Assembly (NCBI GenBank): GCA_963832315.1
Contig: CAWHTT010000009.1
Coordinates: forward strand, 14,110 to 78,109
Direction: 5' to 3'
Origin: an uncultured Solirubrobacterales bacterium
GTDB taxonomy: Bacteria > Actinomycetota > Thermoleophilia > Solirubrobacterales > Solirubrobacteraceae
DNA length: 64,000 bases
In this document: positions 29,858 to 64,000 of the stretch, piece after piece
Layout: each line of letters opens with the position of its first letter
How positions within the stretch are numbered: the stretch's first letter is position 1
Notes under the pieces: model-generated
What the model was told of the DNA's origin: nothing
Database searches by the model: none
The model's input: the letters and a program-made list of their open reading frames with translations, nothing else
Translations under genes and position numbers: made by a program

Positions 29858-29870
29858 AAGGAGAACACGA

Positions 29871-31379: not shown

Positions 31380-31397
31380 CACCTGGGGGCGAGGAAC

Positions 31398-31429: not shown

Positions 31430-31445
31430 GGGATAGGCTGACACC

Positions 31446-34298: not shown

Positions 34299-34314
34299 GC
34301 GCGGGAGCGACGGC

Positions 34315-35548: not shown

Positions 35549-35549
35549 C

Positions 35550-44343: not shown

Positions 44344-45747
44344 ATGGTCATCGAGGTAACCGCCACCGACGCGGACGCGGTGAGGGCCGACCTCGTCGCG
44401 GTCCCGTCCGGACCGCGGGCTTCCGCACTCGGGGCGCCGGAGCGTGCGTCGGCGGACGCCGACCCGGTCGCGATCGTGTACCGGGCTTCCGGTCAACCCC
44501 CGCTAGCGGTGGTGGCGGTCGAGCCGGATATCGAGGGGCTCCGGACCGCCGCGGCGCGGGCGGTGCGCGCGTGCCGAAGTGGCGGAATTGTCGCGTGGGA
44601 GCTTGATTTCGCGCTGTCTGTGGCAATCGAGGAGCAGGTGCGCGCGTTGGCCGAGGGTGCGGTCATCGGCGGCTACGACGGCAGGCGTTGGCGCAGCGGC
44701 GAGCCACCGCGCGGCGTCGAGCGGTTCGTGATCTGTGGGTGCCCTGGCGAGCTCGCGCCGGTGGCCGAGCGCGCGGCGCTCGTGGCGCGTTGGACGAACG
44801 TCGCCCGCGAGCTTGTCGACGCGCCGGCGAACGTGATGTCGCCCGCGGGACTATCCGATCGGGTAGTGAAGTTTGCCCACCTGGACAGTGAAATTGTCGA
44901 CCCGGATAGGGCGGGCCTGGGTGCACTCGCCGCGGTCGGCGGGAGTAGCCCGATCCCGCCGCGTCTCATCGTGCTTCGGCACGCGCCGCCCGGCGCGCCG
45001 GGCGCGCCGCGGCTCGCGCTCGTCGGTAAGGCCGTCACGTTTGACACCGGCGGTTACTTCCTGAAGCCCCAGCACGACATCGTCCGTCAGAAGGCGGACA
45101 TGGCGGGCGGCGCGGCCGTCGCGGCGGCCCTCGGCGCGATCGCCGAGCTTGGGCTACCGCTGTCGGTCACGGGGGTCGTGCCGGCGTGCGAGAACATGCT
45201 GAGCGGGAGCGCGATCCGGCCCACCGACGTGATCACGACCGCGGCCGGTCTGACCGTCGAGGTCAACAATCCCGACGCCGAAGGCCGTCTGATCCTGGCC
45301 GACGCGCTGTGGTACGCGCGCCGGGACGGCGCGACCCACGTCGTCGACCTGGCCACGCTCACCGGCGCGATGCGCGCCGGCATGGGCGACTTGTATGCGG
45401 GAGTGTTCGCGCCCGACGAGGCGTGGCGCGAGGCGGTCGTGCAGGCCGGCAACGCGAGCGGGGACCTGGCCTGGCCGTGGCCGCTTCATCCGCGCTACCG
45501 GCCGCTGATCGACTCGACCGTGGCCGATCTGCGCAACACCGCGGGCAAGGGCTTCGGCTTCCCGATCGTCGCCGCGACCTTCCTTCAGCAGTTCGCGGGC
45601 GAAGGGCCGTGGGCGCACGTCGACATGCTGGGGCCGGCGCTGCTCGACGACGATCGCGGCGACGCCTTCGGCCGCGGGGCGTCCGGCTACGGCGTGCGCA
45701 TGCTGGTCGAGCTGGCCACGCGACTGAGCGTTACGCTGACCCAATGA
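44344..45747 (+). CDS. pepA: M17 leucyl aminopeptidase
   Basis: VGKAVTFDTGGYFLKP, DMAGGAAV and NPDAEGRLILADAL (NTDAEGRL-type) metal-ligand motifs. Confidence 0.85.
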   Translation: MVIEVTATDADAVRADLVAVPSGPRASALGAPERASADADPVAIVYRASGQPPLAVVAVEPDIEGLRTAAARAVRACRSGGIVAWELDFALSVAIEEQVRALAEGAVIGGYDGRRWRSGEPPRGVERFVICGCPGELAPVAERAALVARWTNVARELVDAPANVMSPAGLSDRVVKFAHLDSEIVDPDRAGLGALAAVGGSSPIPPRLIVLRHAPPGAPGAPRLALVGKAVTFDTGGYFLKPQHDIVRQKADMAGGAAVAAALGAIAELGLPLSVTGVVPACENMLSGSAIRPTDVITTAAGLTVEVNNPDAEGRLILADALWYARRDGATHVVDLATLTGAMRAGMGDLYAGVFAPDEAWREAVVQAGNASGDLAWPWPLHPRYRPLIDSTVADLRNTAGKGFGFPIVAATFLQQFAGEGPWAHVDMLGPALLDDDRGDAFGRGASGYGVRMLVELATRLSVTLTQ

Positions 45748-46355
45748 ACCACGGAGACGGCGATCGGCGCGCGGTGGCGCCGTCTACCCCGGGACGGGTC
45801 ATCGACACTGCGAAGATCGACCTCGCCGCCGCCGAGCGGGCCGCGCGTGATCTGCTGCAGGCGATCGGCGCCGACCCCGACGCTCCCGACCTGCTCGAGA
45901 CGCCCCGCCGCGTGGTCGCCTCGTTCGCGGAGCTCATAACCCCCGCCGAATTCGGCGCGACGGTGTTCCCGAACGAGGGCTACGACGAGCTCGTGCTGGT
46001 GCGCGACATCTCGTTTCAGACCCTGTGCATGCACCACCTGCTGCCGTTCCACGGCGTCGCCCACGTCGCCTACCTGCCGGGGGAGAGCATCATCGGGCTG
46101 TCGAAGCTCGCGCGCGTGGTCGAGTTCTTCGCCCGCGATTTGCAGCTCCAGGAGCGGATGACCGTCCAGATCGCCGACTGGCTCGAGCAGGAACTCGCGC
46201 CGCGCGGCGTAGGGGTGGTGCTGAGCGCCGAGCACATGTGCATGACGATTCGCGGCGTGCGCAAGCCGGGGGCGCGGACGATCACCTCGGCGTTGCGGGG
46301 CTCGCTTCGCTCCGACGCACGCACGCGCCAGGAGTTCTTCAGCCTTGTCGGCTGA
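45744..46355 (+). CDS. folE: GTP cyclohydrolase I (type 1)
   Basis: ETPRRVV, CMHHLLPFHGVAHVAY, GLSKLARVV and QLQERMT motifs. ATGA overlap with pepA. Confidence 0.9.
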   Translation: MNHGDGDRRAVAPSTPGRVIDTAKIDLAAAERAARDLLQAIGADPDAPDLLETPRRVVASFAELITPAEFGATVFPNEGYDELVLVRDISFQTLCMHHLLPFHGVAHVAYLPGESIIGLSKLARVVEFFARDLQLQERMTVQIADWLEQELAPRGVGVVLSAEHMCMTIRGVRKPGARTITSALRGSLRSDARTRQEFFSLVG

Positions 46356-46935
46356 CGCCGGTGAGCCGTATCCGCTGATCGAGACCGTGGTGACCACGAC
46401 CGGTTCAGACGGGGTGGTCAACTGCGCGGCGATGGGGGTGCGGTGGGGGGAGGAAGAGCTCGTGTTCTGGCCGTTCGACGCGACGCGGACGCTGCGCAAT
46501 CTGCGTGTGCACGGCGAGGCCGTCGTCCACCTGACCGATGACGTGCTGCTGTTCGTGCAGGCTGCCCTCGGCCATCCGCACCCTGCGATGCGTCCCGCCA
46601 GCACGGTCGCCGGCTCGGTGATCGAGGATGCGAACGCCTGGCGCGAGGTTGTCGTGACCGAGATCACGCCCGGTGGCGACGAGCTGCCGCGGTCGATGGT
46701 GCGTGCGCGTGTCGTGGCCTCGGGTACCGGCACGCCTCGGCAACCGCTCGGCCTGTGCCGCGCCCGGCACGCCGCCGTCGAAGCATCGATCCTCGCGTCG
46801 CGGCTGAAGTGGCTGGGCGCCGAGCACGTGTCGGCCGAGTTCGCCCGGCTACAGGAGCTGGTCGACAAGACGGCCGGATCCCGCGAGCGCGCCGCGATGG
46901 ACTACGTACGACGCCACGTCGCAGAGCGCACGTGA
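46345..46935 (+). CDS. DUF447-family protein (flavin-reductase-like fold; linked to H4MPT clusters)
   Basis: LIETVVTTTGSDGVVNCAAMGV N-terminus resembles DUF447 proteins of methanogens and methylotrophs. TTG start overlaps the folE end. Confidence 0.65.
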   Translation: MSADAGEPYPLIETVVTTTGSDGVVNCAAMGVRWGEEELVFWPFDATRTLRNLRVHGEAVVHLTDDVLLFVQAALGHPHPAMRPASTVAGSVIEDANAWREVVVTEITPGGDELPRSMVRARVVASGTGTPRQPLGLCRARHAAVEASILASRLKWLGAEHVSAEFARLQELVDKTAGSRERAAMDYVRRHVAERT

Positions 46936-47897
46936 CCGAGGTCGTGATCAGCGCGCCGGCCAGGCTGCATTTCGGGATGCTCGATCCGACCGGAGTGGGC
47001 GCGCGCCGCTTCGGAGGCTGTGGCGTGGCCGTGGAGTCGCCCCGGGTGGTTGTCGCGGTCAGGCCACGGTCCGGCGAGGAGGTTGTGGCGGGTGGGTCGC
47101 AGGCGGAGCGCGCGGGCGAATTCGCCAGGCGGGCCCGGGACGCATTCGGGCACCGGGGCGGCGTCGAGGTGGAGGTGCGCGAGGCGATCCCGCCGCACGT
47201 AGGACTTGGATCGGGCACCAAGCTCGGCCTGGCGGTCGCGTTCGGGGTGGCCGAACTGGCGGGCGTCTCGGCCGGGCCGGAGAAGCTCGCGGAGGCGAGC
47301 GGTCGGGGGGCGCGCTCGAGCGTGGGCGCCTGGACGTTCGCCGAGCCGGGGCTTGTGGTCGAGGCCGGCGTGCGCGAGGGCGGCGCGATCAGCCCGCTGG
47401 TCGCTCGGCACCCGATGCCCGCTCGGTGGCGATGCGTGCTCGCGCTGCCGCGCGACGCGGAGGGGCTGTCCGGCGATGCCGAGGAGCGACTCTTCGATCA
47501 GTTGCACGACCGGTCGGCGGGCGAGCCGAGCGTCTCGCGGCTGCTGCTGACCGCCCTGCTGCCGGGGCTGGTGACCGGGGACATCGACGAGTTCGGCGGC
47601 GCGCTGTCAGAGATCCAGCGCGAGATCGGAGCGATGTTCGCGGACCAGCAGGGCGGCGTGTTCCATCCGCGCGCGGCTCCTGTGGTCGAGGAGTTGCATG
47701 CGCTCGGCGTCGGGGCGGTCGGGCAGAGCTCGTGGGGTCCGGCGGTCTACGGGATCGTGGACGGCCCGGAGCGCGCCGCGGACGTCGCCGATCGGCTGCG
47801 CGCCGCCGTCGGGCCGGGCACCGATGTCCGCGTGGTCGACTTCGATCGCACGGGCGCGCGGGTGGCGCGTCATGGCTCGGGCCAGGCGGCGGCGTGA
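46932..47897 (+). CDS. mptG: beta-ribofuranosylaminobenzene 5'-phosphate synthase (GHMP-kinase fold)
   Basis: VVISAPARLHFGMLD start and the IPPHVGLGSGTKLGLAVA GHMP motif. GTGA overlap with the previous gene. Confidence 0.75.
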   Translation: MTEVVISAPARLHFGMLDPTGVGARRFGGCGVAVESPRVVVAVRPRSGEEVVAGGSQAERAGEFARRARDAFGHRGGVEVEVREAIPPHVGLGSGTKLGLAVAFGVAELAGVSAGPEKLAEASGRGARSSVGAWTFAEPGLVVEAGVREGGAISPLVARHPMPARWRCVLALPRDAEGLSGDAEERLFDQLHDRSAGEPSVSRLLLTALLPGLVTGDIDEFGGALSEIQREIGAMFADQQGGVFHPRAAPVVEELHALGVGAVGQSSWGPAVYGIVDGPERAADVADRLRAAVGPGTDVRVVDFDRTGARVARHGSGQAAA

Positions 47898-48637
47898 GGC
47901 TGCTGGTCAGTGTCGTGTCGGCTTCCGAGGCGACGCGCGCCGTCGCCGGTGGAGCGGACATCATCGACGTCAAGGATCCGGGCGAGGGCGCGCTCGGTGC
48001 GCCGGCGCCGCGCGTGGTGTCCGAGGTCGTGGAGGTCGTGGGCGGCGCCGCTCCGGTCAGCGTCGCGCTCGGCGATCTGCCGGATCTCCCGCACACCGCG
48101 GCACTCGCCGCGCGTGGCGCCGCGGTGTGCGGCGCCGCGTACGTCAAGGTCGGGCTGCGCGGGGTGCGCGAGCTCGACCGTGCGGTGGCGCTGATGAGCG
48201 CGGTCGCCGACGCGGTCGGGGATCAGGTTGCGGTGATCGCGGCCGCGTACGCAGACGCCCGCGCGCTCGACCCGCCGGCACTCGAGCCCGCGTGGCTGCC
48301 GGCGTTGGTGGAGCGGACGGGGATCGCCGGCGCGCTCGTCGATACGTTCGTCAAGGATGGGCGCGGGTTGTATGGCTGGCTGTCCGAGGCCGAGCTGACC
48401 GAGTTGGTATCGGGGACGAGGGCGGCCGGTGGGACGTTTGGCGTGGCCGGGCAGCTGCGGCTCGGCGAGCTGTGCCGCGTGCCGGCCGACGTGGTCGGCG
48501 TGCGGTCTGCCGTTTGTCGCGGGAGCGATCGAACGGCTCACCTGGAGCAGGCTCTCGTGGCGGCCGCGGTCGCCGAACTAGGCACCGTTGGCGCTGAAGC
48601 TACGTATGTGTTAGCTGGATCGCCAAAGTCCGGGTGA
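47894..48637 (+). CDS. mfnB: (5-formylfuran-3-yl)methyl phosphate synthase-like protein (DUF556/MfnB family)
   Basis: RLLVSVVSASEATRAVAGGADIIDVKDPGEGALGA N-terminus is typical of the DUF556 family. GTGA overlap with mptG. Confidence 0.7.
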   Translation: MRLLVSVVSASEATRAVAGGADIIDVKDPGEGALGAPAPRVVSEVVEVVGGAAPVSVALGDLPDLPHTAALAARGAAVCGAAYVKVGLRGVRELDRAVALMSAVADAVGDQVAVIAAAYADARALDPPALEPAWLPALVERTGIAGALVDTFVKDGRGLYGWLSEAELTELVSGTRAAGGTFGVAGQLRLGELCRVPADVVGVRSAVCRGSDRTAHLEQALVAAAVAELGTVGAEATYVLAGSPKSG

Positions 48638-49145
48638 GCGGACCGTTACGCGCACTCCCGTGCGACGCACCGCTTCCGGCAGGTAGGCGTCCACCGCCGC
48701 CCCGTCGACCGGTTTGAGCAGGATCGCCTCCTCGGCGCCGATTGCGGCGGCGGCGAGCACGGCCAGCGAGTCGCTCGTGACGTCCCACGACTCGGGAACA
48801 TCCGGTCGCCCGGCGAACGCCGGCGCGGCCACGAGCAGCCCGAGCGAGCGCGGCGCGACCAGCTTTCGGAGCAATTTCGCCCCCGGCAACATCGGCGCGA
48901 GCAGCAGCCCCAGCTGATCCATCGCCTGCAGCGCCAGCCGATGCGCTACATCGTCGCCCAGTCCGACCTGCGCGTCGAGTGCACGGACGACATCCGCGAA
49001 CGGGCCTCCTCCGGGCACGACGAGCACGGGCCGGTCGCGGGCAAGCTCGAGTACGTCCGCGCAGCCGCGGCGTAGTCCTCCGGAGCCCCTCGGCGCTCAG
49101 TAACCCGCCGCCGATCTTCACGACCAGCGGGCGAGGCTCACTCAC
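48611..49145 (-). pseudogene. amino-acid-kinase-family protein (MfnE-like), split by a 1-nt frameshift (possible assembly error)
   Basis: The N-terminus VSEPRPLVVKIGGGLLSAEG is in the frame of GTG 49145. The rest (DRPVLVVPGGGPFADVV..) is in the +1 frame (track ORF 48611..49027). The switch is at plus-strand CCCC 49086..49089. Confidence 0.65.
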
Positions 49146-50143
49146 GACCGAGCACCGACAGCGCGACCGCGGCGGCGACCTCGCCGCCCGTACCGTTCAG
49201 GGGCCGGACGTCGTCGTGGACCGGAAGTCGACAGCGCGCAGCCGCCGCCCGGGCCAGGAATGCGCCCACGCCGACGGCGACGACCTGAGCTGACCGGGGC
49301 GACTTCGGCCGAGACGCGGCGCAACGCCGCCGCGATCGCGGCGACCTGCGCCTCCTCGACCGCGGCGGCGATCGACTCCAGATCGCCCTCGGCCAGCTCT
49401 TCGGGATCGGCGCACACGACGCGCGCCAGCCGGGCGCGGACCTCGGCGACCGATCCGCCGCGGCCGTCCGGGAACGTGCACGTGCACTGCTCGGGGGTGA
49501 GGCTGCCCCGCAGCAGATGCGCGTCGGCGGCGATCGCGAACAACTCCGAGGAAACCGGACACGGCTGACCGCCGACGGGCACGTGCGAGAGCACCGCGGC
49601 CACGTTCGTGCGCAGCGCACCCGTGTAGACCAGCTCGCCTGCGAGCAGCCGCGTCACGTCGGTCCGCCCCCGCGCCACGACGTTCCCGCCGGCGATCGGG
49701 ATCAGGTCGGTGGTCGTGCCGCCACAGTCGACGAGGATCGCGTCGGGCAGCGAGCGCGCCACCAGCAGCGCCGTCGCCATCCAGTTGGCGGCGGCGCAGG
49801 TAAGAGGCGCGGCCCGCGCCGCGTCCAGGCCGATCAGCTCGCCGCCGGTGGTCATCACGCGCAGCCGTCGCCCCGGCAGCGCGTGCGCCGCAGCCCGGAG
49901 CACGTGCAGCACGCCCTCGCGCTTGCTGGCGAACGCGTCGACCAGCTCTGCGGTCGTAGTCAGCGCCACCGGCGCGCCGTCGACCCCCAGTTCCCCGACG
50001 ACGCGTTCGATGACCCCGGACATGCCGTGCGGGTCCCGCCACACCTCGAACGGCTCTGAGGCGATCCGCACCGGGTCGGACCCGTCAACCACCGCGGCCT
50101 TGGTGTTGGCGCCACCGATGTCGAGCCCGATCACCGTGACCAT
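49138..50143 (-). pseudogene. hydantoinase/oxoprolinase-like H4MPT-linked C1 pathway protein (MfnF-like), split by a 1-nt frameshift (possible assembly error)
   Basis: VIGLDIGGANTKAA ASKHA-type N-terminus and DCGGTTTDLIPI are in the frame of ATG 50143. The C-terminal AQVVAVGVGAFLARAAA.. is in the +1 frame, ending at 49138. The switch is at plus-strand GGGG 49296..49299. Confidence 0.7.
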
Positions 50144-50162
50144 CGCGCCATTGCATCACGGA

Positions 50163-50266
50163 TAACGCGTCACGCCACGATGATCCGGGCCGGCGTGACG
50201 GCTAATGCGTCTGGGAGACGCTTAACGCGTCACGCCCGTCGGCAAACCGCCTCGCGTGACGCGTTA
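50163..50266. promoter_or_regulatory. four copies of TAACGCGTCACGCC arranged as two inverted-repeat pairs with 60-bp period
   Basis: Direct copies at 50163..50176 and 50223..50236. Inverted copies at 50192..50205 (one mismatch) and 50253..50266. Lies directly upstream of the mfnF-like start (50143). Confidence 0.5.
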
Positions 50267-51259
50267 GCCGCCAATCAGCGCCATCTCGGCATCGCGGTAG
50301 CGGCCGCCGACGACTGCGTCGGCCGGGACGGCCTGGTCGAGCGCCGCGACGTCGTCGTCGCTCAGCTGGACCTCGAGCGCTGCGACGTTCTCCGCGAGCC
50401 GCTCGGGTCGCTTCGTCCCAGGGATCGGGACGATGTCCTGACCTTTGGCATGCACCCACGCGAGCGCGAGCTGCGCGGGGGACACGCCGCGCTCCTCGGC
50501 GAGCGCCTGCACCCGATCGGCCAGCTCGACGTTCTGACGCAACGCCTCCTCCTGGAAGCGCGGGTTCGACCGCCGCCAGTCGTCCTCGGGGAGGTCGTCC
50601 AGGGAGCGGATCTGGCCGGTCAGGAAGCCGCGCCCGAGTGGCGAGTACGCCACCAGGCCGATGCCCAGCTCGCGCAACGTTGGCAGCACCTCGGCCTCGG
50701 GATCGCGGGTCCACAGCGAGTACTCGGACTGCACGGCGGTCAGCGGGTGGGTGGCGTGGGCCCGGCGGATGATCTCTCCTGACGCCTCGGAGAGGCCGAT
50801 GTAGCGGACCTTGCCTGCGGCGACCAACTCGGCCATCGCGCCCACGGTCTCTTCGATCGGCACTGCCGGATCGACTCGATGCTGGTAGTACAGGTCGATG
50901 TAGTCGGTGCCCAGCCGCTCGAGTGACGCATCGCAAACGCGCTTGACGTTCTCCGGGCTGCCGTCCAGCCCGCGGGGCCCGTAGGGATTCTCCGGGTCGA
51001 AGCTGAACCCGAACTTGGTGGCGATCTCCACCTGGTCGCGGCGCCCCGCGATCGCCCGCCCGACCAGCCGCTCGTTGGTGTACGGCCCGTACACCTCGGC
51101 GGTGTCGAGCAACGTCACCCCGAGCTCGAGCGCCCGGTGGATCGTCTCGAGCCCCGCCTGCTCATCGCCGGTGCCATAGGCCCACGTCATGCCCATACAA
51201 CCGAGCCCCTGCGCCGAGACCTCGAGCCCCTGGCTTCCGAGCTTTGTTCTCTGCATCAA
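50264..51259 (-). CDS. aldo/keto reductase
   Basis: [25 protein letters not shown] and GLSEAS motifs of the AKR superfamily. Confidence 0.85.
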
Positions 51260-51357
51260 TCAAACTCCTAGTCGCTTGCTTGCAGACACCACCGAGTCTG
51301 TGACGCGACCAGCGACTCGACAAGGGAATAGCCGATCCTGGTAGATGACCTTCCCCC

Positions 51358-52092
51358 ATGCGAATCGTTCCGGTCCTCGACTTGAAAGGCGGGGTCGTCG
51401 TGCATGCCCGCCGCGGGCAGCGCGCCGATTACGCCCCGCTGCAGAGCCCGCTCGTGCAGGGCAGCGAGCCGGTCGCGGTGGCGCGGGCGCTGTGCGCCGT
51501 CTGCCACACGAGGACGCTGTACGTGGCCGATCTCGACGCGCTCGCCGGCCAACCGGCCGACGAGGCGACGCTGAGCGCGCTGGGTGCGGTGGCGGACCCA
51601 TGGGTGGACGCCGGCGCCACCACGCCCGAGCGCGCGGCGGTGCTCGAGCGCGCCCGGGTGGCGCGCAACGTCATCGGCACCGAGTCGATCGGCTCGGGGG
51701 CGCCGCCCGCCCGCCCGCCCACCGTCCAGGGGGCGCCGCCTGCCCGGCCGCCCGCCGTCCCCGCGCCACCGCTCGTCCTCAGCGTCGACCTTCGCGACGG
51801 CCGGCTGATCTCGCCTGACCCCGCGCTCGCCGGCCGCGAGCCGGCGGCCGCCGCGTCGCTGGCGCAAGCGTTGAACGTGCGCGAGTTGCTCGTGATCGAC
51901 CTCGCCCGCGTGGGGAGCGGCTCGGGCCCCCCGCTCGACGCCGTGGCTGAGCTGGCGCGCGCGCTGCCGGGAGTGGAGATCTACGCCGGCGGTGGCGTGC
52001 GCCACGACGACGACCTGCGCGCGCTCGAGGCAGCCGGCGCCGCCGGCGCGCTCGTCGCCACCGCGCTGCACGAAGGTCGCCTCACGCTGTGA
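51358..52092 (+). CDS. HisA/HisF-family (beta/alpha)8-barrel protein
   Basis: MRIVPVLDLKGGVVVHA start and C-terminal GGGVRHDDDLRALEAAGAAGALVATALHEG phosphate-binding end. Contains an in-frame 33-bp tandem duplication. Confidence 0.7.
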   Translation: MRIVPVLDLKGGVVVHARRGQRADYAPLQSPLVQGSEPVAVARALCAVCHTRTLYVADLDALAGQPADEATLSALGAVADPWVDAGATTPERAAVLERARVARNVIGTESIGSGAPPARPPTVQGAPPARPPAVPAPPLVLSVDLRDGRLISPDPALAGREPAAAASLAQALNVRELLVIDLARVGSGSGPPLDAVAELARALPGVEIYAGGGVRHDDDLRALEAAGAAGALVATALHEGRLTL

Positions 52093-57249: not shown

Positions 57250-58403
57250 GGCCCGACCTCCGCCAGCAAACGGGCGAGCAGCGCGGCCGCGGTCGGCGCG
57301 TCGCCGGGCTGCGGCACCTGGAGCGTCAACGGTACGCCGTCCAGCCGATGGGCAGTGCCGCCGGCAGAGACCCCGGCGGCCGCGGTGCGGATCCACACCT
57401 CGACCCCCGGCCCGGCTACGAGGCAGCCAGCCGGTCCAGACTCGACGCGCAGCGTGACGTCAACGTCCTCGAACGGCTCCGTGGCCGTGACGAGCTCCGG
57501 ATGGCCGCCGGCGAAATCCACATTCCCGCCGTACCCCGTCTGCCAGGCCAGCACATCCTCGGCGCTCCTGCATCCGGGCGTATCCGGCAGCTCCAGCGTG
57601 ACCGCATGGCGCTCTTGGCACAGGGCCCGGACTAGTTCGTGGAGCGCGAGGGCGCGTCGCTGGCCACCCGCGCCGGCGGTCAGGCCCGCTCCGTACACGA
57701 ATGCGACATGTGGAACCGCTCGCAGGCGCTCGAGCAGGCTCTCGGCTTGAGTCCCGATCTCGCCCTCCGGGACCGTGACGCCGCGCTGCAAGGCATGCAG
57801 GCTGACGAGCGCGTCGAGGTCGCGGTCACTCCCCCAGCCGAGCCGTACCTCGGCGCGCCGGGCCGTCGCCGTATCCGCGTCATCGACGACCACGAGTGTG
57901 CGCTCGTCGTCGCCACCGAAGCCGAGCCGCTCGAGCAGTCGCGGATGCGTCGTCTCCGGGTCCTCGCGCCAGATCACGACGAGCCGCGAGCGGTCGCGGA
58001 TCTCACCCAGGGTGGCCGTCGACGCGCCGCGAAGCGGAACCGCCGGGGCACCCGGCCACGCGCCCGCCACCGCGCCGGTGCTCACCAGCGCCCCGAGACG
58101 GTCGGCGAGCGCCACCGCCGCGCGCGCGTCCTCGACGGTGGCGTGATCGAAGCCGTTCAGCAGAGGACGCCGCGCAGCGCGCAATAACTCGGCGGCTCGC
58201 ACGAGCGCCGCGTCGACGTCGACCACCTCGCCGTTGATGGCGGCGCCCGGCGACTCCGCCGGGCGAAGCATGCGTTCCGCGAACCACTCAGCGCCGAGGC
58301 GACAGGGTGGCTCCAGATGCACGTCGCCATTGCGCTGCTCCAGGAACACGTCGTCGCACAGCAGACCACACCCGGCGCATGTGACGGGGCGAAGCTCAGC
58401 CAT
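57246..58403 (-). CDS. fhcB: formyltransferase/hydrolase complex subunit B (FwdB homologue)
   Basis: MAELRPVTCAGCGLLCDD N-terminus and a molybdopterin-oxidoreductase-like fold. ATG 58403 is preferred over the TTG at 58412. Confidence 0.85.
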   Translation of the reverse strand: MAELRPVTCAGCGLLCDDVFLEQRNGDVHLEPPCRLGAEWFAERMLRPAESPGAAINGEVVDVDAALVRAAELLRAARRPLLNGFDHATVEDARAAVALADRLGALVSTGAVAGAWPGAPAVPLRGASTATLGEIRDRSRLVVIWREDPETTHPRLLERLGFGGDDERTLVVVDDADTATARRAEVRLGWGSDRDLDALVSLHALQRGVTVPEGEIGTQAESLLERLRAVPHVAFVYGAGLTAGAGGQRRALALHELVRALCQERHAVTLELPDTPGCRSAEDVLAWQTGYGGNVDFAGGHPELVTATEPFEDVDVTLRVESGPAGCLVAGPGVEVWIRTAAAGVSAGGTAHRLDGVPLTLQVPQPGDAPTAAALLARLLAEVGP

Positions 58404-59472
58404 AGAGGACAATTGACTCTGGAAGCGCGGACAAAAGCTGAGCTCCGCGCTGGACGAGATCGGACACGCCCGCCTCGGCCGAAATCAGCGTGCACACCGG
58501 TGCGCCTCGCCTGATCTCCTCGCCGGCGTGCGGGACGTCGCGCACGAGCCCTGACGGCCACCAGCCGGGATCGGGAGCGCGGAGATCACGATCGGCGTAC
58601 AGGACGACCTTCACCCGTGAGCGGTCGACCGCCGGGACGGTCGGCAGGCTCAGGCGGCGCGCCCCCTGCACGTGCGCCTCGAAGCTGCCCGGACCGAACA
58701 GCTCGAGCGACGCCGGCGGTCGCGGGTTGACCTCGAGCACCCAGGCGTGACGGCCGTCCCAGATCGCGTCAACCCCGAACGCCCCGCGTACGCCGAACCG
58801 CTCCGCGACCTCGGCGCACACGGCGCGCAGCTGCCCGTCGAGCTCGGTCAGCTCGCCGGCCGGGAGGCGCGGAGGGACCACATTGCCCGTCCAGGCAAAG
58901 CCGCGCGGTCGATGCAACTGCTCGGTCAAACCGAGCACGGCGGCCCGCCGGCCGTCGCCGATCGCCACCGCAGAACAGGAGAGCCCGTATATCCGGCGCT
59001 GGAGGATCTCGGTGGGGCGCGGTGCGCCGCCCGTCCACCGCCGCACTCCCCGGCCTCCGCCGCCGCCGCGCGGCTTTCGCAGCCACCGGTCCGGCTCCGC
59101 GACGGGGAGCTCGCCGGCCGCCGGTCGGGTCTCGGGCGCGTGCGCACCGGCCGCCCGCGCCGCCGCGCCCACGGCCCAGGGATCGCGCACATCCGCCAGC
59201 AGCTCGGGCGGCGTCCCGAGCAACTCGCGCCCTTGGGCCAGCTGACGGACCAGATCGGGGCGATTCTCGAATCCGGCGCCGTACACGACCGCGTCGGCCT
59301 CGACGTCCGCGGCGAGCCTCGCCAGAGCATCGCCCGAGGACGCTGTCGCGCCCGGGGCGATTGCGCGCAGGTCGAAGTCGCCGAAGCGGTCGAGCGCGAT
59401 CGCCTCGTACCCATCGGCCACCGCGAGCTCGGCCAGCATCCGCGCGCTCACGGCGACCAGCAGCACGCTCAC
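58396..59472 (-). CDS. ATP-grasp domain protein (carboligase-like; candidate methanofuran/H4MPT tail ligase)
   Basis: ATP-grasp-like core (RWLRKPRGGGGGRGV, GAFGVDAIWDGRHAWVLEVNPRP). GTG 59472 overlaps the upstream stop (GTGA). Confidence 0.6.
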   Translation of the reverse strand: MSVLLVAVSARMLAELAVADGYEAIALDRFGDFDLRAIAPGATASSGDALARLAADVEADAVVYGAGFENRPDLVRQLAQGRELLGTPPELLADVRDPWAVGAAARAAGAHAPETRPAAGELPVAEPDRWLRKPRGGGGGRGVRRWTGGAPRPTEILQRRIYGLSCSAVAIGDGRRAAVLGLTEQLHRPRGFAWTGNVVPPRLPAGELTELDGQLRAVCAEVAERFGVRGAFGVDAIWDGRHAWVLEVNPRPPASLELFGPGSFEAHVQGARRLSLPTVPAVDRSRVKVVLYADRDLRAPDPGWWPSGLVRDVPHAGEEIRRGAPVCTLISAEAGVSDLVQRGAQLLSALPESIVLYG

Positions 59473-60329
59473 GGCAGCCTCGTTCCCTCCAGGAGCGCGG
59501 CGAGCAGCGTCGCGGCAACCAGGTCCGCGGTCGTCCCGGGGTTCAGCCGGTTGCCGGCTTCGCGGAGCGAGACGTCGAACTCCGCCGGCGAGCGCGATCC
59601 ATCGCGCACCTCGCGCGCGGCTGCGCTGACCGCCCGGGCCACATCGACGCCCGCCTTGCGTGCGATAAGCGTGTCGGGCCAACTCGACAGCAGGCCGACG
59701 TGAACGGAAACGATGGCATCGAGCGTGGAGAGCCCCTTGCGCAGTGCATCATCGAGCAGCGGCAAGCCGGTGTCGAACACGATCGTGTACCCGGTCGCGT
59801 ATTCCGAGGCGATGCTGTCGCGGTGCGCCGCGGCGGCCATCGCGTCGCGCAGCGAAACGTCGGCCGGAGCCCGCACGTCGTGCTCGGGCGCCTCGCCCAG
59901 CCCGCCGGGGTTGGCCCGGGCGATCGCCGCGAAGGCCGCCGCCGCGTCGTCTACGTCGAGGCCGGCAAGCGTCCGCTCGGTGGCCGATCGCAACGATTCG
60001 CCGGCTCGCTGCGTGACCGCCGCGCGCGCGAGCGGCGCGAACAGGAGCACGATCCCCAGATTGGTGTTGGCGCGGGCCACCCGTCCGGTCGCCTCCACGC
60101 CGTCCGCGACCAGCTCTCCGACGGTTCGTTGCATGACCCGACGACGCGCGAATACCGGGCCGAGCGCGAGCGCCGAGCGCACCATGTCGGAGTAGGTCGT
60201 GTCGGAGAAGTCATGCGCCGGCGTGATGTTGCCGGGCTTGGCTGCTGACACCTCGAGCACGCACGCGAGCTGCACCTGCTGCTCAAGTAGGTCCCCGCTC
60301 AGTCGCGAGTGAGCTAGGGTTGCGTTCAC
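59469..60329 (-). CDS. triphosphoribosyl-dephospho-CoA synthase (CitG/MdcB) family protein
   Basis: LEVSAAKPGNITP, NTNLGIVLLFAPL and NPGTTADL motifs of the CitG family. First gene of the minus-strand fhc operon. Confidence 0.75.
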   Translation of the reverse strand: MNATLAHSRLSGDLLEQQVQLACVLEVSAAKPGNITPAHDFSDTTYSDMVRSALALGPVFARRRVMQRTVGELVADGVEATGRVARANTNLGIVLLFAPLARAAVTQRAGESLRSATERTLAGLDVDDAAAAFAAIARANPGGLGEAPEHDVRAPADVSLRDAMAAAAHRDSIASEYATGYTIVFDTGLPLLDDALRKGLSTLDAIVSVHVGLLSSWPDTLIARKAGVDVARAVSAAAREVRDGSRSPAEFDVSLREAGNRLNPGTTADLVAATLLAALLEGTRLP

Positions 60330-60366
60330 CCCGTCACCATACGATAGGAGAGAGGAGACTCACGTT

Positions 60367-60879
60367 ATGGCCATCACCCTGGCAACCGGTGAGGCGCTGG
60401 TCGGTGAAGGTAACGAGGTCGCGCACATCGACCTGCTGATCGGATCCAAGAGTGGACCGGTCGGTGAAGCATTCGCCGAGGCCTTCATCAACGAGTCCCA
60501 AGGTCACACCAACCTGCTCGCCGTGGTCACCCCCAACCTGCCGGCCAAGCCGGACACGGTGCTCAGCAACAAGGTGACGATCGGGGGCGCGAGGCAGGCC
60601 GTGCAGCTGTTCGGTCCCGCTCAGGCTGCGGTCGCCCGCGCGGTGGTCGACTCGGTAGCCGACGGCGTCATCCCCAAGGATCAGGTCGACGACCTGTGCA
60701 TCATCGTCAGCGTGTTCATCCACTGGGAGGCCGAGGACGACAAGAAGATCTACACCTGGAACTACGAGGCCGTAAAGATGTCGATCGCCCGCGCCCTGGG
60801 CGGTGAGCCGAGCATCGACAAGGTCCTCGCCGACACGCCTGACTCGCGTCATCCGTTCGCCGGCGGCGCCGAGGATTAG
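60367..60879 (+). CDS. fae: formaldehyde-activating enzyme
   Basis: GEALVGEGNEVAHIDLLIG, QGHTNLLAVVTPNLPAKP, IIVSVFIHWEA. Full-length Fae with GGAGAGAGGAGA RBS. Confidence 0.9.
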   Translation: MAITLATGEALVGEGNEVAHIDLLIGSKSGPVGEAFAEAFINESQGHTNLLAVVTPNLPAKPDTVLSNKVTIGGARQAVQLFGPAQAAVARAVVDSVADGVIPKDQVDDLCIIVSVFIHWEAEDDKKIYTWNYEAVKMSIARALGGEPSIDKVLADTPDSRHPFAGGAED

Positions 60880-60890
60880 CGAGGGAGCAG

Positions 60891-61655
60891 TTGACCGCGC
60901 AGGCCGGAGAGCCTTCGCTCACCGGTCTGCGCACCGTCGTCACGGGGGCAAGCTCCGGGATCGGCCGGGCGATCGCGATCGCCTTTGCGGCCGCCGGAGC
61001 GAACGTCGGAATCGGCTACAACCGCTCCTCAGATGCCGCGCGAGCGCTGGCCGAGGAGCTTGACGGCGGCCCTCATCCTCTGCTCCGGGCGGACCTCAGC
61101 ACGCCCAACGGCTGCGCTTCGATCGTGGAAGACGCCTTCGCCGCCTTGGAGAGCGTCGACGTCTGGGTCAACAACGCCGGCGCCGACGTGCTCACGGGCG
61201 AGGCGAGGGAGTGGCCGGCCGAGCGCAAGCTCGAGGCGCTGATCGACATCGACCTCAAAGGCACGATTCGCTGTTCGCGGCTCGTCGCCGGCCGGATGCG
61301 CCCCGGCGGCTGCATCCTCAACATCGGCTGGGATCACGCCACAATCGACGGGATGGCGGGTGATAACCCGGAGTTGTTCGCCGCGGTGAAGGCGGGGGTG
61401 CTCGGCTTCTCCAAGGCGCTCGCGCGCTCGGTGGCGCCCGACATTCGCGTCAACGTGCTGTGCCCCGGCTGGGTCGAGACGGCCTACGGCGAGGGGGTGG
61501 ACCGCGCCTTCTACGACAAGGTCGCCGCGGCCACGCCACTGAAGCGATGGGGCACGCCGCAGGACATCGCGGGCGCCGCGGTATGGCTCGCGTCGCCGGC
61601 CGCGGCGTTCGTCACCGGCCAGGCGATCAACGTCAACGGCGGCACAGTTGGCTGA
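60891..61655 (+). CDS. short-chain dehydrogenase/reductase (SDR) embedded in the fae operon
   Basis: TGASSGIGRAIA, NNAG, FAAVKAG (Phe where classical SDRs have the catalytic Tyr of Y-x3-K), and PGWVET motifs. TTG start. Confidence 0.75.
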   Translation: MTAQAGEPSLTGLRTVVTGASSGIGRAIAIAFAAAGANVGIGYNRSSDAARALAEELDGGPHPLLRADLSTPNGCASIVEDAFAALESVDVWVNNAGADVLTGEAREWPAERKLEALIDIDLKGTIRCSRLVAGRMRPGGCILNIGWDHATIDGMAGDNPELFAAVKAGVLGFSKALARSVAPDIRVNVLCPGWVETAYGEGVDRAFYDKVAAATPLKRWGTPQDIAGAAVWLASPAAAFVTGQAINVNGGTVG

Positions 61656-62991
61656 CACGCTGTTCGTCACCGGCCGCCTGGCGGAGCCGGCGGTGCGCTA
61701 CATCGTGTCCGAGCTGGAGATCGGCCACCAGATCGCCGTGATGAACATCAGCGTCGCCGCGCTGATGACCACGCGCTGGATCGCCCGGCGGCTCGAGGTG
61801 CCCGACGGGGTCGACAACATCGTGATCCCGGGGCTGTGCGACGGCGACGTCGACGCGTTGCAGCAGGCCACCGGGCTGCCGGTGCGTAAGGGCCCGGCCG
61901 ACGTCAGGGCGCTGCCGGAGTGGTACGGCCGCGAGGCGGTCCGGGCCGAGCTCGGGCCGCGTGACGTGCGCGTGTTCGCCGAGATAAACGGCGTGCAGTC
62001 GCTGACTCGCGAGCGGGTGATCGAGCGGGCGGAGGCGTATCGCGAGGAGGGCGCGGACGTGATCGACCTCGGACTGTCGCTCGATCAGCCGTGGCTGACC
62101 GAGGGCCCGGAGACGATCGCCGCCTTGCGCGAGCGCGGCCTGTCGCTCAGCATCGACACGCTCGACCCCGAGCACATCCGCATGGCCGACGCCGCCGGCG
62201 TGGATTATGTGCTGAGCCTCACGCCGGGCACGATCGACCTGGCCGAAACGCTGCGGGCCACCCCAGTGCTGATCACCGACGACCCCGATGACCTCGACGC
62301 GCTGGGCCGGATGGCGGCCCGGATGGACCAACTGAAGCGGCCCTACCTGCTCGACTCGATCCTGGCTCCGATCAACTCGGGCTTCGCCGCGTCCCTGGCC
62401 CGGTACGTGGAGGTCCGCCGCCGCCATCCCGACGCCGAGATGCTGATGGGGATCGGAAACCTGACCGAGCTCACCGAGGCCGACTCGACCGGGGTCACCG
62501 CGCTGCTGATCGGCTTCTGCCAGGAGGTCGGCATCGGCGCGGTGCTGACCACCGAGGTGATCGGCTGGGCCCGGGGCGCGGTACGCGAGACGGTGCTGGC
62601 GGCCGAGATCATGCACCTGGCCCAGCGCCAGGCGCGGCCGCCCAAGCACCTCGACTCGGGCCTGGTCACGAGCAAGGACGAGTCGATGCGCGCCCCCAGC
62701 GAGGATGAGCTGCGGGCGATGCAGGCGCAGATCTCCGACGCCAACTACCGGCTGTTCGCCGACGCCGAGTGGCTGTACGCGTTCAACGGCGAACGGTTCG
62801 TCCGCGAGGCCAACATGTACGCGGTGTTCGACCAGCTTGAGGTCGACGACGCCTCGCACGCCTTCTACCTCGGCAAGGAGCTGATGAAGGCCACGATCGC
62901 GCGCGGCCTGCACAAGAACTATCGCCAGGAAGGCCCGCTGGACTGGGGCCTTTTGAGCTTTCCCGAACCTCGACGGGAGGACGTCCCATGA
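61648..62991 (+). CDS. dihydropteroate synthase-like pterin-binding protein (H4MPT biosynthesis type)
   Basis: Central pterin-binding barrel (EGADVIDLGLS, SIDTLDPEHIR, MGIGNLTELTEADS) with extra N- and C-terminal domains, as in methanopterin-type DHPS homologues. Confidence 0.7.
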   Translation: MADTLFVTGRLAEPAVRYIVSELEIGHQIAVMNISVAALMTTRWIARRLEVPDGVDNIVIPGLCDGDVDALQQATGLPVRKGPADVRALPEWYGREAVRAELGPRDVRVFAEINGVQSLTRERVIERAEAYREEGADVIDLGLSLDQPWLTEGPETIAALRERGLSLSIDTLDPEHIRMADAAGVDYVLSLTPGTIDLAETLRATPVLITDDPDDLDALGRMAARMDQLKRPYLLDSILAPINSGFAASLARYVEVRRRHPDAEMLMGIGNLTELTEADSTGVTALLIGFCQEVGIGAVLTTEVIGWARGAVRETVLAAEIMHLAQRQARPPKHLDSGLVTSKDESMRAPSEDELRAMQAQISDANYRLFADAEWLYAFNGERFVREANMYAVFDQLEVDDASHAFYLGKELMKATIARGLHKNYRQEGPLDWGLLSFPEPRREDVP

Positions 62992-63848
62992 AGAAGATCC
63001 TGATCCAGCTCGACACCGACCAGCACCCCAGCGCGTTTGACGCAATTGCCGCCTACGACGCCGATGTCGACGTCGTGCTCGGATACGGCGAGATCACCGA
63101 CGAGAACCTGACCGACGTCGTCCAGGGCGCGATCTTCCCGCGCGGCCCCGACGGCTTGGCCAATACCGCGTTCTGGGTGGGAGGGTCCAAGGTGCGCGAC
63201 GGCGAGAAGGTGTTCGCAGCCGCCAAGAAGCTGTTCTTCGAGCCGTTCAACGCGTCGATCATGCTCGACTCGGACGGTTCGAACACGACCGCCGCCGCCG
63301 CCGTGGCCCGCGTGCGCGGTGCGGTTGATCTGAAAGGCGCCAAAGCGGCGGTGATCGGGGTCGGTCCCGTAGGACTGCGCACGGCCGAGCTGCTGCGTCG
63401 CGAGGAAGCCGAGGTGACCATGTTCACCTTCCCGCCCGACACGATGGAGGGCAAACACCGCCGGGCGTCGGGCGTTCCGGTCGCCGAGGAAGCCGGGTTC
63501 GAGGTCGTCGAGCCGGAGTCCAGCGACGACCTGGATGGGGCGCTCGCCGGCTTCGCTGTCGTGTTCGCCGCGGGCCCCGCGGGCACCCAGATCCTGCGGC
63601 GCAGCGGCTGGACGCAGGAGGGCGTGCGCGCGGTGGTCGACTACTCGGCGGCCGATCCGGTCGGGGTCGAGGGCGTCGACCGCGGCGACAGCCTCGAGGA
63701 GGAAGACGGGGTCCTCAAGCTGGGCGCGCTGGCGGTAGGCGGTCCCAAGATGAAGCTGCAAAAGGCCTGCATACGCGCCATGTTCGAGACCAAGGGCACC
63801 GTGCTCGACCTCGAGGGCGTCTACGACGTCGCGCTCGAGGCGCTGTGA
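62988..63848 (+). CDS. mtdB: NAD(P)-dependent methylenetetrahydromethanopterin dehydrogenase
   Basis: MKKILIQLDTDQHPSAFDAIAAYDADVD start and the IGVGPVGLR Rossmann motif. I cannot discriminate MtdA from MtdB by eye. ATGA overlap with the previous gene. Confidence 0.8.
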   Translation: MKKILIQLDTDQHPSAFDAIAAYDADVDVVLGYGEITDENLTDVVQGAIFPRGPDGLANTAFWVGGSKVRDGEKVFAAAKKLFFEPFNASIMLDSDGSNTTAAAAVARVRGAVDLKGAKAAVIGVGPVGLRTAELLRREEAEVTMFTFPPDTMEGKHRRASGVPVAEEAGFEVVEPESSDDLDGALAGFAVVFAAGPAGTQILRRSGWTQEGVRAVVDYSAADPVGVEGVDRGDSLEEEDGVLKLGALAVGGPKMKLQKACIRAMFETKGTVLDLEGVYDVALEAL

Positions 63849-64000
63849 GCTATTTCTTCGAGAACACGAACTTCCCCATCGGCCCGTCGAGCGGGCCGTC
63901 GGGCTCCGGCCGCCAGAGGATCGTGTCCTCGATCTTGCGCGCCAGGGTGAAGTCCTTGTCGGTGATGCCGCCAGCCGAATGCGTGGCCAGCTTGACCCAG
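63849..64000 (-). CDS. 3' end of an unidentified convergent gene (partial)
   Basis: The minus strand reads ..WVKLATHSAGGITDKDFTLARKIEDTILWRPEPDGPLDGPMGKFVFSKK then TAG at 63849..63851. It is open to the window edge. No family recognised. Confidence 0.4.

Follow-up and report, generated by a model that had tools for sequence, protein, structure and literature searches.

The DNA analyzed here, hereafter the window, comprises 64,000 nucleotides of contig CAWHTT010000009.1 (positions 14,110 to 78,109, assembly GCA_963832315.1) from an uncultured Solirubrobacterales bacterium. Its right-hand part (44.3-64.0 kb) carries a dense cluster of genes predicted to oxidize formaldehyde through tetrahydromethanopterin (H4MPT)- and methanofuran-linked one-carbon (C1) intermediates, next to genes for the biosynthesis of pyrroloquinoline quinone (PQQ). 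This pathway is textbook knowledge for methylotrophic Proteobacteria and is also known from Planctomycetes, NC10 and others. A first-pass annotation of the window had placed the complete pathway at positions 44344-63848 of an actinobacterial-looking genome. Judged by its gene content and conservation, the region represents the middle of a conserved island of ~26 kb, with predicted functions in C1 and alcohol oxidation.

Because the window contains ~71% G+C, plain lists of open reading frames (ORFs) are full of spurious frames. Calling by the longest ORF yielded overlapping spurious ORFs and was dropped; genes were called instead from a GC3 frame plot together with the gene calls of near-identical public contigs. 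Families were assigned with Pfam and NCBIfam profiles at their curated cut-offs, and structural relatives by sequence matches to the PDB. The exact Fae protein of the window occurs on three ENA metagenome contigs (L081-L083; ERZ25039577, ERZ25039559, and ERZ25039562), which match the window at 98.9-99.7% identity over 13.6 kb, whereas an exact look-up of its Mtd protein returned no match. The seven catalytic genes of the pathway are as follows.

52978-53928, minus strand: Mch, methenyl-H4MPT cyclohydrolase (TIGR03120, 379 bits against a cut-off of 229).
53925-54698, minus strand: FhcC, FwdC-like subunit (TIGR03122, 208 bits against 131).
54695-55600, minus strand: FhcD/Ftr, formylmethanofuran:H4MPT formyltransferase (TIGR03119, 370 bits against 293; PDB Ftr 1M5S, E = 1e-84).
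55597-57249, minus strand: FhcA, FwdA-like amidohydrolase subunit (TIGR03121, 667 bits against 393; PDB 8RJA_A, 470 bits, and 6S6Y_A, 365 bits).
57246-58403, minus strand: FhcB, FwdB-like subunit (TIGR03129, 170 bits, below the cut-off of 328; no Pfam match; PDB FwdB 5T5I, E = 2e-33).
60367-60879, plus strand: Fae, formaldehyde-activating enzyme (TIGR03126, 247 bits against 118; Pfam Fae, E = 7e-69).
62988-63848, plus strand: MtdA/B/C-family methylene-H4MPT dehydrogenase (Mpt_N, E = 3e-25; full-length match to M. extorquens MtdA, PDB 1LU9, E = 3e-57).

All genes named in the first-pass annotation were recovered where it had put them by the GC3 plot, Pfam and NCBIfam, and the profile searches, which might have failed to support its family assignments, upheld every named family, catalytic and cofactor alike. 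The map of 44.3-64.0 kb shows five strand-coherent units in which most genes overlap by 4-11 nucleotides, in agreement with the five tightly packed transcription units read earlier. Other details needed correction. The pathway genes do lie inside the interval 44344-63848, but its first gene (44344-45747) encodes an M17 aminopeptidase and is not a C1 gene. All seven catalytic genes are in that interval, but the island as a whole is not, as it runs past the right edge of the window, which cuts a pterin-4a-carbinolamine dehydratase (PCD) gene (63850-64000, minus strand). The four subunit genes listed as fhcC-D-A-B are present, but their order along transcription is fhcB-A-D-C. Finally, a short-chain dehydrogenase/reductase (SDR) gene at 60891-61655, between fae and a DHPS-like gene, had been omitted from the list.

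The FhcB subunit, kept in 59 of the 62 related loci described below, bears on the type of the Fhc complex. In an alignment with archaeal FwdB (PDB 5T5I), the W/Mo-ligating residues Cys118 and His119 correspond to Gly and Ala, and the Cys118 position is not conserved as Cys in 56 aligned FhcB sequences. No FwdD, FwdF, or FwdG gene was found in the island. Because of the lost metal-ligating Cys and the lack of these three genes, the complex is predicted to belong to the hydrolase (Fhc) type rather than to the redox formylmethanofuran dehydrogenases; a redox Fwd-type complex was considered and rejected, given that the catalytic Cys of FwdB is absent. All 56 aligned sequences (55 loci and the window) keep an N-terminal C-x2-C-x3-C...C motif, which we take to be the [4Fe-4S] site of archaeal FwdB, and this region is missing from M. 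extorquens FhcB in the alignment. It would be unusual for a hydrolase-type Fhc complex to contain an Fe-S cluster.

The remaining genes of the island inside the window mostly belong to families associated with the two cofactors.

44344-45747, plus strand: M17 leucyl aminopeptidase (LAP), first gene of the folE unit, divergent from pqqA (Pfam Peptidase_M17, E = 1.5e-94).
45744-46355, plus strand: folE, GTP cyclohydrolase I (TIGR00063, 187 bits against a cut-off of 181.6; Pfam E = 1.7e-62).
46345-46935, plus strand: DUF447 protein (Pfam DUF447_N and DUF447_C); its gene adjoins the RFAP synthase gene also in the second-lineage loci described below.
46932-47897, plus strand: beta-RFAP synthase, MptG-like (TIGR00144, 119 bits against 113.5; GHMP kinase domains).
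47894-48637, plus strand: MfnB-like 4-(hydroxymethyl)-2-furancarboxaldehyde phosphate (4-HFC-P) synthase (Pfam 4HFCP_synth, PF04476, 209 bits against 22.4; NCBIfam equivalogs up to 194 bits, below cut-off).
48611-49145, minus strand: MfnE-like protein of amino-acid-kinase fold (repaired 177-aa protein: NF040622 MfnE, E = 1.6e-17, 64 bits, below the cut-off of 300).
49142-50143, minus strand: MfnF-like, hydantoinase-like 'H4MPT-linked C1 transfer pathway protein' (TIGR03123, 279 bits against 244; archaeal MfnF equivalog, 194 bits against 520).
50264-51259, minus strand: aldo/keto reductase (Pfam E = 1e-83).
51358-52092, plus strand: HisA/HisF-related, Orf17-like protein (Pfam His_biosynth; TIGR00734, E = 2e-28, below cut-off).
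52082-52981, minus strand: RimK-type glutamate ligase, MyfA/OrfY- or MptN-like (TIGR00768, 177 bits against 143; MptN equivalog, 204 bits, below cut-off).
58396-59472, minus strand: ATP-grasp ligase, Orf5/MyfB-like polyglutamate ligase (Pfam ATP-grasp_3, E = 3e-18).
59469-60275, minus strand: CitG-like triphosphoribosyl-transferase family protein (Pfam CitG, E = 2.6e-65; start taken from the gene calls on L081).
60891-61655, plus strand: atypical SDR (Pfam adh_short_C2), between fae and the DHPS-like gene.
61648-62991, plus strand: DHPS-like pterin-binding protein, MptH-like (Pfam DUF6513, 72 bits against 23.9; TIGR00284, 159 bits, below the cut-off of 257).
63850-64000, minus strand: PCD, 3' end only, cut by the window end (100% identity over 49 aa to the L081 PCD; NF002017, 77 bits against 80).

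The stop codon of the aminopeptidase gene overlaps the folE start at 45744 (ATGA), so the two genes are predicted to be translationally coupled and are probably co-transcribed. Beta-RFAP synthase catalyzes the first committed step of methanopterin synthesis, and the product of MfnB is the furan moiety of methanofuran and methylofuran. The DHPS-like protein is 83-95% identical among the 57 loci that hold it. The two glutamate ligases and the HisA/F-like protein match at the level of the RimK, ATP-grasp_3, and His_biosynth families, respectively, and their equivalence to MyfA, MyfB, and Orf17 of M. extorquens is putative. In M. extorquens, two glutamate ligases, OrfY/MyfA and Orf5/MyfB, act on the methylofuran side chain, and methylofuran is not made without the HisA/F-like Orf17 (PMC8141765).

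The amino-acid-kinase gene (MfnE-like) named in the first-pass annotation is present, but it can be read only once an extra base near 49081 (49078-49083) is removed; this +1 frameshift is seen in comparison with the orthologues in two of the loci, L001 and L048. When read in the correct frame, the gene is conserved in all loci, and it is intact in the other loci inspected. A 181-aa ORF at 48600-49145 was briefly considered as an orphan gene, and it has no Pfam, NCBIfam, or PDB match and is mostly the wrong frame of the frameshifted gene. Among the three contigs L081-L083, which belong to one population, 41 single-base indel columns occur in 7.1 kb, and their genes are split or fused differently in each contig (HisA/F, Mch fused to RimK, CitG, and the PQQ dehydrogenase described below). 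Such frameshifts in this data source are probably assembly errors, and since same-population contigs show so many single-base indels, with genes split at differing places, an assembly error is also the most likely cause of the frameshift in the window.

In order to place the island phylogenetically, the Mch protein was scanned against one genome per GTDB species and the best 80 loci were examined. Sixty-two loci are close (76-94% identity), followed by a Conexibacter sp. metagenome-assembled genome (MAG; 56%) and by Planctomycetes (44-48%). The 62 loci come from MAGs of several independent projects, on contigs of up to 2.5 Mb. Titles with Solirubrobacterales or Solirubrobacteraceae predominate; several loci are named only 'uncultured Actinomycetota', and Candidatus Dormiibacterota is the title of one short contig (L022). 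This result bears out the actinobacterial host proposed earlier. As for a proteobacterial or planctomycetal contig, which would make the arrangement ordinary, Mch is nearest to the 62 Solirubrobacterales-type loci; we therefore assign the host to an uncultured member of the Solirubrobacterales (class Thermoleophilia, Actinomycetota) and not to the Proteobacteria or Planctomycetes. The best 80 Mch loci include no named cultured species of Solirubrobacterales, in a pattern-based scan that cannot prove absence.

Gene presence in the 62 loci was determined by tblastn of the island proteins. All seven catalytic genes occur in 56 loci, the remaining ones being short contigs, and in 51 loci the seven are accompanied by 11 accessory genes. 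The genes for Fae, the SDR, the DHPS-like protein, and Mtd stand in this order as one unbroken run in 56 of 56 loci. Within reach of the island, pqqB was found in 50 of the 62 loci and the aminopeptidase gene in 45, whereas the aldo/keto reductase gene at 50264-51259, correctly noted in the first pass, was found in only 12 and is a variable insert, not a conserved island member. The island proteins diverge about as much as those of the flanking LAP and pqqB/pqqC genes, and the G+C content is uniform (~0.69-0.74 over the island and 0.66-0.75 over the rest of the window). Neither tRNA genes nor Rfam families (riboswitches included) were found in the window, and Pfam scans of its ORFs detected no integrase or transposase domains. 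In a neighbour-joining tree of Mch, the clade is monophyletic with the Conexibacter sp. MAG as its sister, but this tree is weak evidence because it contains only the groups that were fetched. Taken together, the synteny in 62 loci, the in-step divergence, the uniform G+C content, the lack of mobile elements, and the Mch tree indicate long-standing, essentially vertical inheritance of the island within an uncultured clade. The archaeal Fwd/Ftr proteins give FhcA, FhcD, and above all FhcB higher scores than the M. extorquens Fhc subunits do (470 vs 365, 288 vs 266, and 119 vs 23 bits, respectively), which argues against a recent proteobacterial origin.

In the literature on Solirubrobacterales or Thermoleophilia with H4MPT, Fae, xoxF, or PQQ methanol dehydrogenase, we found no description of such an island. 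The earlier remark that there are only survey-level reports outside the classical groups is fair, as the genes of the H4MPT pathway are listed for 'Actinomycetes' in a single survey sentence (Chistoserdova 2016, PMC5020050).

Directly upstream of the island lies a predicted complete pqqABCDE operon, followed by a further gene.

44186-44260, minus strand: pqqA, precursor peptide of 24 aa, MTWIKPKFEFIELCSEVTSYLYHR (from the ORF listing; E-x3-Y motif only).
43228-44124, minus strand: pqqB (Pfam Lactamase_B_2, E = 1e-36), between pqqA and pqqC.
42500-43231, minus strand: pqqC (TIGR02111, 330 bits against a cut-off of 240; Pfam TENA/THI-4/PQQC).
42240-42560, minus strand: pqqD (TIGR03859, 78 bits against 46).
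41117-42355, minus strand: pqqE, radical SAM/SPASM protein (TIGR02109, 497 bits against 381; Pfam Radical_SAM and SPASM).
40269-41117, minus strand: ferritin-like protein of 282 aa, a relative of R2-like ligand-binding oxidases (Pfam Ribonuc_red_sm, 35 bits; NCBIfam NF006200, 75 bits, below cut-off).

The 24-aa ORF is presumably PqqA, as its E-x3-Y motif is the one that we take to mark this peptide, and the true start of pqqE probably lies downstream of the ORF start. The start of the ferritin-like gene overlaps the pqqE stop, and the gene also follows pqqE in ten loci reaching far enough (L003, L011, L016, L020, L024, L029, L030, L040, L046, and L057). It is not a known pqq gene and its membership of the pqq unit is uncertain. 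No PqqF/G-type peptidase was found in the pqq cluster; a role of the M17 aminopeptidase in the processing of PqqA, or in the trimming of cofactor side chains, is conceivable.

The first-pass annotation had reported no PQQ-dependent enzyme in the window, and Pfam scans of the window ORFs likewise detected none. Its two questions, the source of formaldehyde and the user of PQQ, are largely answered just beyond the window. On the near-identical contigs, Mtd is followed by PCD (on the opposite strand), a DUF1464 protein, a 'PQQ-associated' protein of the MSMEG_3727 family (TIGR04339, 241 bits), and a PQQ-dependent dehydrogenase of the methanol/ethanol family (566 aa; TIGR03075, 591 bits against a cut-off of 480), located ~1.7 kb beyond the window end and preceded by a strong Shine-Dalgarno sequence, GAAAGGAG. 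The continuation PCD-DUF1464-MSMEG_3727-like-PQQ dehydrogenase is also present in three more distant Solirubrobacterales genomes. The dehydrogenase gene occupies 15571-17274 in L081, 15044-16744 in L088, and 15144-16844 in L090. The dehydrogenase has the vicinal Cys-Cys and a W-D-Y-D motif, in which an Asp stands two residues after the catalytic Asp; this second Asp marks lanthanide-dependent PQQ enzymes. Its best PDB matches are PedH (319 bits, E = 9e-94) and ExaA (270 bits), ahead of XoxF (266 bits) and MxaF (239 bits). The leaderless dehydrogenase is the likely user of the PQQ from pqqABCDE, and by methanol oxidation it would be the most likely source of formaldehyde.

Behind the PQQ dehydrogenase come MntP, an ErcA-like iron alcohol dehydrogenase, and a HisKA_3 sensor kinase. 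The latter two genes lie at 17999-20513 of L081 and 17452-20666 of L088 (iron alcohol dehydrogenase: NF041833, 432 bits, below cut-off), the L088 interval also containing a LuxR-type response regulator, and this set resembles the ethanol-oxidation regulatory module of Pseudomonas. On the 1.18-Mb contig L090, genes for phosphoribulokinase, CbbX, and the small and large subunits of RuBisCO stand directly behind the island (17533-20768), a hint that some members may fix C1-derived CO2 autotrophically.

The SDR encoded between Fae and the DHPS-like protein is atypical. It keeps the glycine motif (TGxxxGxG), NNAG, and the catalytic Lys, but the Ser and Tyr of the classical Ser...Tyr-x3-Lys signature are replaced: in 49 of 49 aligned sequences (48 loci and the window), Trp stands in for the catalytic Ser, with an invariant Asp behind it, and Phe takes the place of the catalytic Tyr. 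An Asp at the SDR Ser position is also present in the trypanosomatid pteridine reductase PTR1. A homologous-protein search for relatives returned only Solirubrobacterales orthologues of at least 80% identity, and a library of representatives at 50% identity revealed a subfamily with 44-57% identity (180-245 bits, compared with ~127 bits for FabG-like SDRs). The same substitutions occur in most subfamily representatives inspected, with two of ten in one alignment keeping the Tyr. Two representatives are fusions of the pterin enzyme HPPK (FolK) with the SDR, and there are more than 120 clusters of such fusions, one of them named Gemmataceae. No C1 genes were found near the fusion on the two contigs inspected, so the HPPK fusion supports a role with pterins but not specifically with H4MPT.

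Several genomic contexts of the SDR are more specific. It adjoins the DHPS-like gene in 56 of 56 Solirubrobacterales loci, and a metagenome scan with the subfamily alignment retrieved ~30 loci in which the SDR shares at least 45% identity with that of the window. Where the flanks are usable, nearly every one of these loci also has H4MPT and methylofuran genes, arranged differently: FhcA-D-C, Mch, RimK-type ligase, CitG, HisA/F, MfnF, MfnE, MfnB, then SDR-PCD-DHPS-like-PabB-PabA-DUF447-MptG, with PTPS and a PQQ dehydrogenase also in these clusters. By comparison, ~45 loci with generic SDRs have none of these C1 neighbours. The rearranged clusters represent a second high-GC lineage (L094, WNGI01000971.1; also L091, L097, L098, L100, and L138), in which a 627-aa PQQ dehydrogenase is followed by a cytochrome c and in which Mch is only ~50% identical to that of the Solirubrobacterales clade.

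Based on this context, we tentatively propose that the SDR may be a new class of pterin reductase, acting as dihydromethanopterin reductase (H2MPT to H4MPT), possibly with PCD, in bacteria without DmrA or AfpA/DmrB. A sepiapterin-reductase-like or a quinonoid-dihydropterin-reductase-like role paired with PCD would be the alternatives. Neither dihydrofolate reductase (DHFR)-type (DmrA) nor flavoprotein-type (AfpA/DmrB/DmrX) genes were detected in the scanned window ORFs, in the called flanks of L081-L090, or in seven Pfam-scanned ORFs of L094. We found no literature linking a short-chain dehydrogenase with dihydromethanopterin reductase. Planctomycetes likewise have no recognisable dihydromethanopterin reductase gene (Chistoserdova 2016, PMC5020050; PMC6193120), and the SDR, if the proposal is true, would fill this 'missing' last step of H4MPT synthesis.

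From the observed gene content, families, synteny, taxonomy, and linkage, we infer the enzyme activities, cofactor structures, and physiological substrate as follows. Methanol oxidation by the leaderless PQQ alcohol dehydrogenase, supplied with PQQ by pqqABCDE, would yield formaldehyde, which Fae would condense with (dephospho-)tetrahydromethanopterin. The MtdA-family enzyme would oxidize methylene-H4MPT to methenyl-H4MPT with NAD(P)+, and Mch would hydrolyse the latter to formyl-H4MPT. FhcD would then transfer the formyl group to a methanofuran/methylofuran-type cofactor, from which the amidohydrolase site of FhcA would free formate. The pterin cofactor would be made by FolE, the MptG-like and DHPS-like proteins, PCD, and the SDR, perhaps with the DUF447 and CitG-like proteins, and the furan cofactor by MfnB, the MfnE-like, MfnF-like, and Orf17-like proteins, and the two glutamate ligases. 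We consider it quite probable that the locus is a conserved, vertically inherited C1/alcohol-oxidation island in which the Fae-Mtd-Mch-Fhc pathway, its cofactor genes, pqq, and a PQQ dehydrogenase as the likely formaldehyde source work together.

A number of observations weigh against this reading. FhcB and the DHPS-like, MfnB, MfnE-like, MfnF-like, and MptN-like proteins score below NCBIfam equivalog cut-offs, so their exact functions are less certain than their family membership. In the window, no homologue of MfnA, MfnC, or MfnD, no known dihydromethanopterin reductase, no formate dehydrogenase, and no assimilation pathway are visible, the MfnE-like gene is frameshifted, and the host genomes are all MAGs. 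The PQQ dehydrogenase has no signal peptide (maximal Kyte-Doolittle hydropathy of 0.42 in the first 70 aa), which is unusual for a PQQ enzyme, and its MSMEG_3727-family partner has none either. Moreover, its closest relatives PedH and ExaA are of the ethanol type, and the ErcA-like iron alcohol dehydrogenase and sensor kinase behind it are arranged as in Pseudomonas ethanol-oxidation regulons, so that methanol is not proven as the substrate.

These last points would fit an island that serves formaldehyde detoxification or dissimilation only, the formaldehyde being released by demethylation of methoxylated aromatics, methylamines, choline, or similar compounds and the PQQ enzyme being a dehydrogenase of ethanol or higher alcohols in bacteria that are not methylotrophs. 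The PDB ranking of that enzyme, the iron alcohol dehydrogenase, HisKA_3 kinase, and LuxR-type regulator behind it, and the lack of assimilation genes in the window all speak for such a role, as do the occurrence of the H4MPT pathway in non-methylotrophic Burkholderia (Chistoserdova 2016, PMC5020050) and a 2024 stable isotope probing study, in which a Solirubrobacteraceae MAG was obtained from 13C-methanol-labelled soil DNA but was not counted among the methylotrophs (PMC10994693). On the other hand, pqq is in tight linkage with the H4MPT module and the PQQ dehydrogenase in every examined genome reaching far enough; the lanthanide-type Asp is typical of XoxF, ExaF, and PedH, several of which oxidize methanol; a Calvin-Benson-Bassham (CBB) operon adjoins the island in one genome (L090); and when plant roots and rhizosphere were fed with 13C-methanol, the predominant 13C-labelled taxa included Solirubrobacteraceae (PMC9258066). 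We thus regard detoxification as the sole function as rather unlikely, and a C1/alcohol-oxidation island fed by its own PQQ dehydrogenase as the better account. Decay of the island in this organism, with a real mfnE-like frameshift, no methylofuran, and an inactive pathway, would be suggested by the extra base that splits the gene relative to L001 and L048, but it is improbable, as the other island genes are all intact, the MfnE-like gene is intact in the other loci inspected, and the indel columns among the three same-population contigs are typical of long-read assembly errors.

The remaining two explanations are both very improbable. A recent horizontal gain from Proteobacteria or Planctomycetes, or a mis-binned non-actinobacterial contig, might be suspected from the patchy phyletic distribution of the pathway, from related genomes that are all MAGs, and from the lack of named cultured species among the best 80 loci; it is largely refuted by the 62 syntenic loci from independent MAG projects on long contigs, by island proteins that diverge in step with the LAP and PqqB/C genes at uniform G+C content, by the low identity to Planctomycetes and the higher archaeal scores of FhcA, FhcB, and FhcD, and by the scans free of tRNA and mobile-element genes. 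Likewise, a reductive direction from CO2 to methylene-H4MPT, with a true formylmethanofuran dehydrogenase as in methanogens, would agree with Fhc subunits that are nearer to archaeal Fwd/Fmd than to M. extorquens Fhc and with the FwdB-like four-Cys motif kept at the N-terminus. Against it, the W/Mo-ligating Cys118 and His119 are replaced, no genes for FwdD/F/G, Mer, Mtr, or Hmd occur in the island, which does encode Fae and an NAD(P)-type Mtd, and PQQ places it in an aerobic context.

On the pqq side of the island, the window also contains a glycerol/dihydroxyacetone cluster (23345-38060) with two glpK genes, an IclR/GylR-type regulator, glpF, dhaK/dhaL, glpA, glpB, and glpC, and with a gene for a DhaM-like EIIA-HPr-EI fusion protein of 836 aa. 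Elsewhere, the window encodes an MMPL transporter, proteases, transporters, and regulators.

The pathway itself is known; what would be new is the island in Solirubrobacterales, with an archaeal-like FhcB carrying an Fe-S motif, an embedded SDR and PCD instead of a known Dmr type, and linkage to pqq and a leaderless PQQ dehydrogenase. Because the pathway is not new, the finding is of value for ecology, cultivation, and the discovery of enzymes, not as a new principle. Among soil actinobacteria, the Solirubrobacterales rank with the most abundant. The island suggests that this clade can oxidize methanol or other formaldehyde-yielding compounds by the 'Gram-negative' scheme, rather than by mycothiol and the ribulose monophosphate (RuMP) pathway, and its members may be overlooked methanol consumers in soil. 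Methanol oxidation, if true, would explain the labelling of Solirubrobacteraceae by 13C-methanol, and it would imply a cultivation recipe of methanol plus lanthanides. Two mechanistic questions are raised: where a leaderless PQQ enzyme and PQQ work in a presumably monoderm cell, and which enzyme reduces dihydromethanopterin, for which the atypical SDR is a testable candidate.

Among known systems, the island most invites comparison with the 'archaeal-like' H4MPT/methylofuran cluster of Methylorubrum extorquens AM1, with which it shares essentially the same families, namely Fae, Mtd, Mch, FhcABCD, RimK-type and ATP-grasp ligases, CitG-, HisA/F-, DHPS-, and MfnB/E/F-like proteins, and a predicted hydrolase-type complex without a Mo/W ligand in subunit B. 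That cluster, which we take to run orf5/myfB, orf7, fae, orf17, orf9, mtdB, mch, orfY/myfA, fhcCDAB, belongs to another phylum, whereas the order here is fhcB-A-D-C, no DmrA was seen, FhcB keeps the archaeal Fe-S Cys motif (23 bits to M. extorquens FhcB vs 119 bits to FwdB), an atypical SDR and PCD are embedded, and folE and pqqABCDE are physically linked. The H4MPT genes of Planctomycetes resemble those of the island in being non-proteobacterial, in comprising Fae, Mtd, Mch, and Fhc without a recognisable Afp/DmrA-type reductase (PMC5020050), and in the occurrence of the same SDR subfamily; however, their Mch is only 44-48% identical, their genes are far less clustered, and the SDR is fused to HPPK, a fusion that lies away from C1 genes on the two contigs inspected, which may or may not be planctomycetal.

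With the archaeal W/Mo formylmethanofuran dehydrogenases (PDB 5T5I and 8RJA), the Fhc complex has homologous A, B, and C subunits, of which A and B score above those of M. extorquens, and the Cys motif, but the replacement of Cys118/His119 by Gly/Ala and the lack of FwdD/F/G set it apart, and by this criterion it would not be a redox enzyme. The PQQ dehydrogenase resembles the lanthanide enzymes PedH of Pseudomonas putida, XoxF of Methylacidiphilum, and ExaF in its TIGR03075 match, Cys-Cys, and W-D-Y-D; unlike them, it has no signal peptide, is accompanied by an MSMEG_3727-family protein instead of MxaJ/XoxJ and cytochrome cL, and belongs to a presumably monoderm host. Lastly, the cultured actinobacterial methylotrophs Amycolatopsis methanolica, Mycobacterium, and Rhodococcus use N,N-dimethyl-4-nitrosoaniline (NDMA)-/NAD-linked type III methanol dehydrogenases, mycothiol-dependent formaldehyde oxidation, and RuMP. 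Genes for a type III methanol dehydrogenase, mycothiol, and RuMP are absent from the window, and, in contrast to these members of the same phylum, the island combines PQQ and H4MPT in the scheme typical of Gram-negative methylotrophs.

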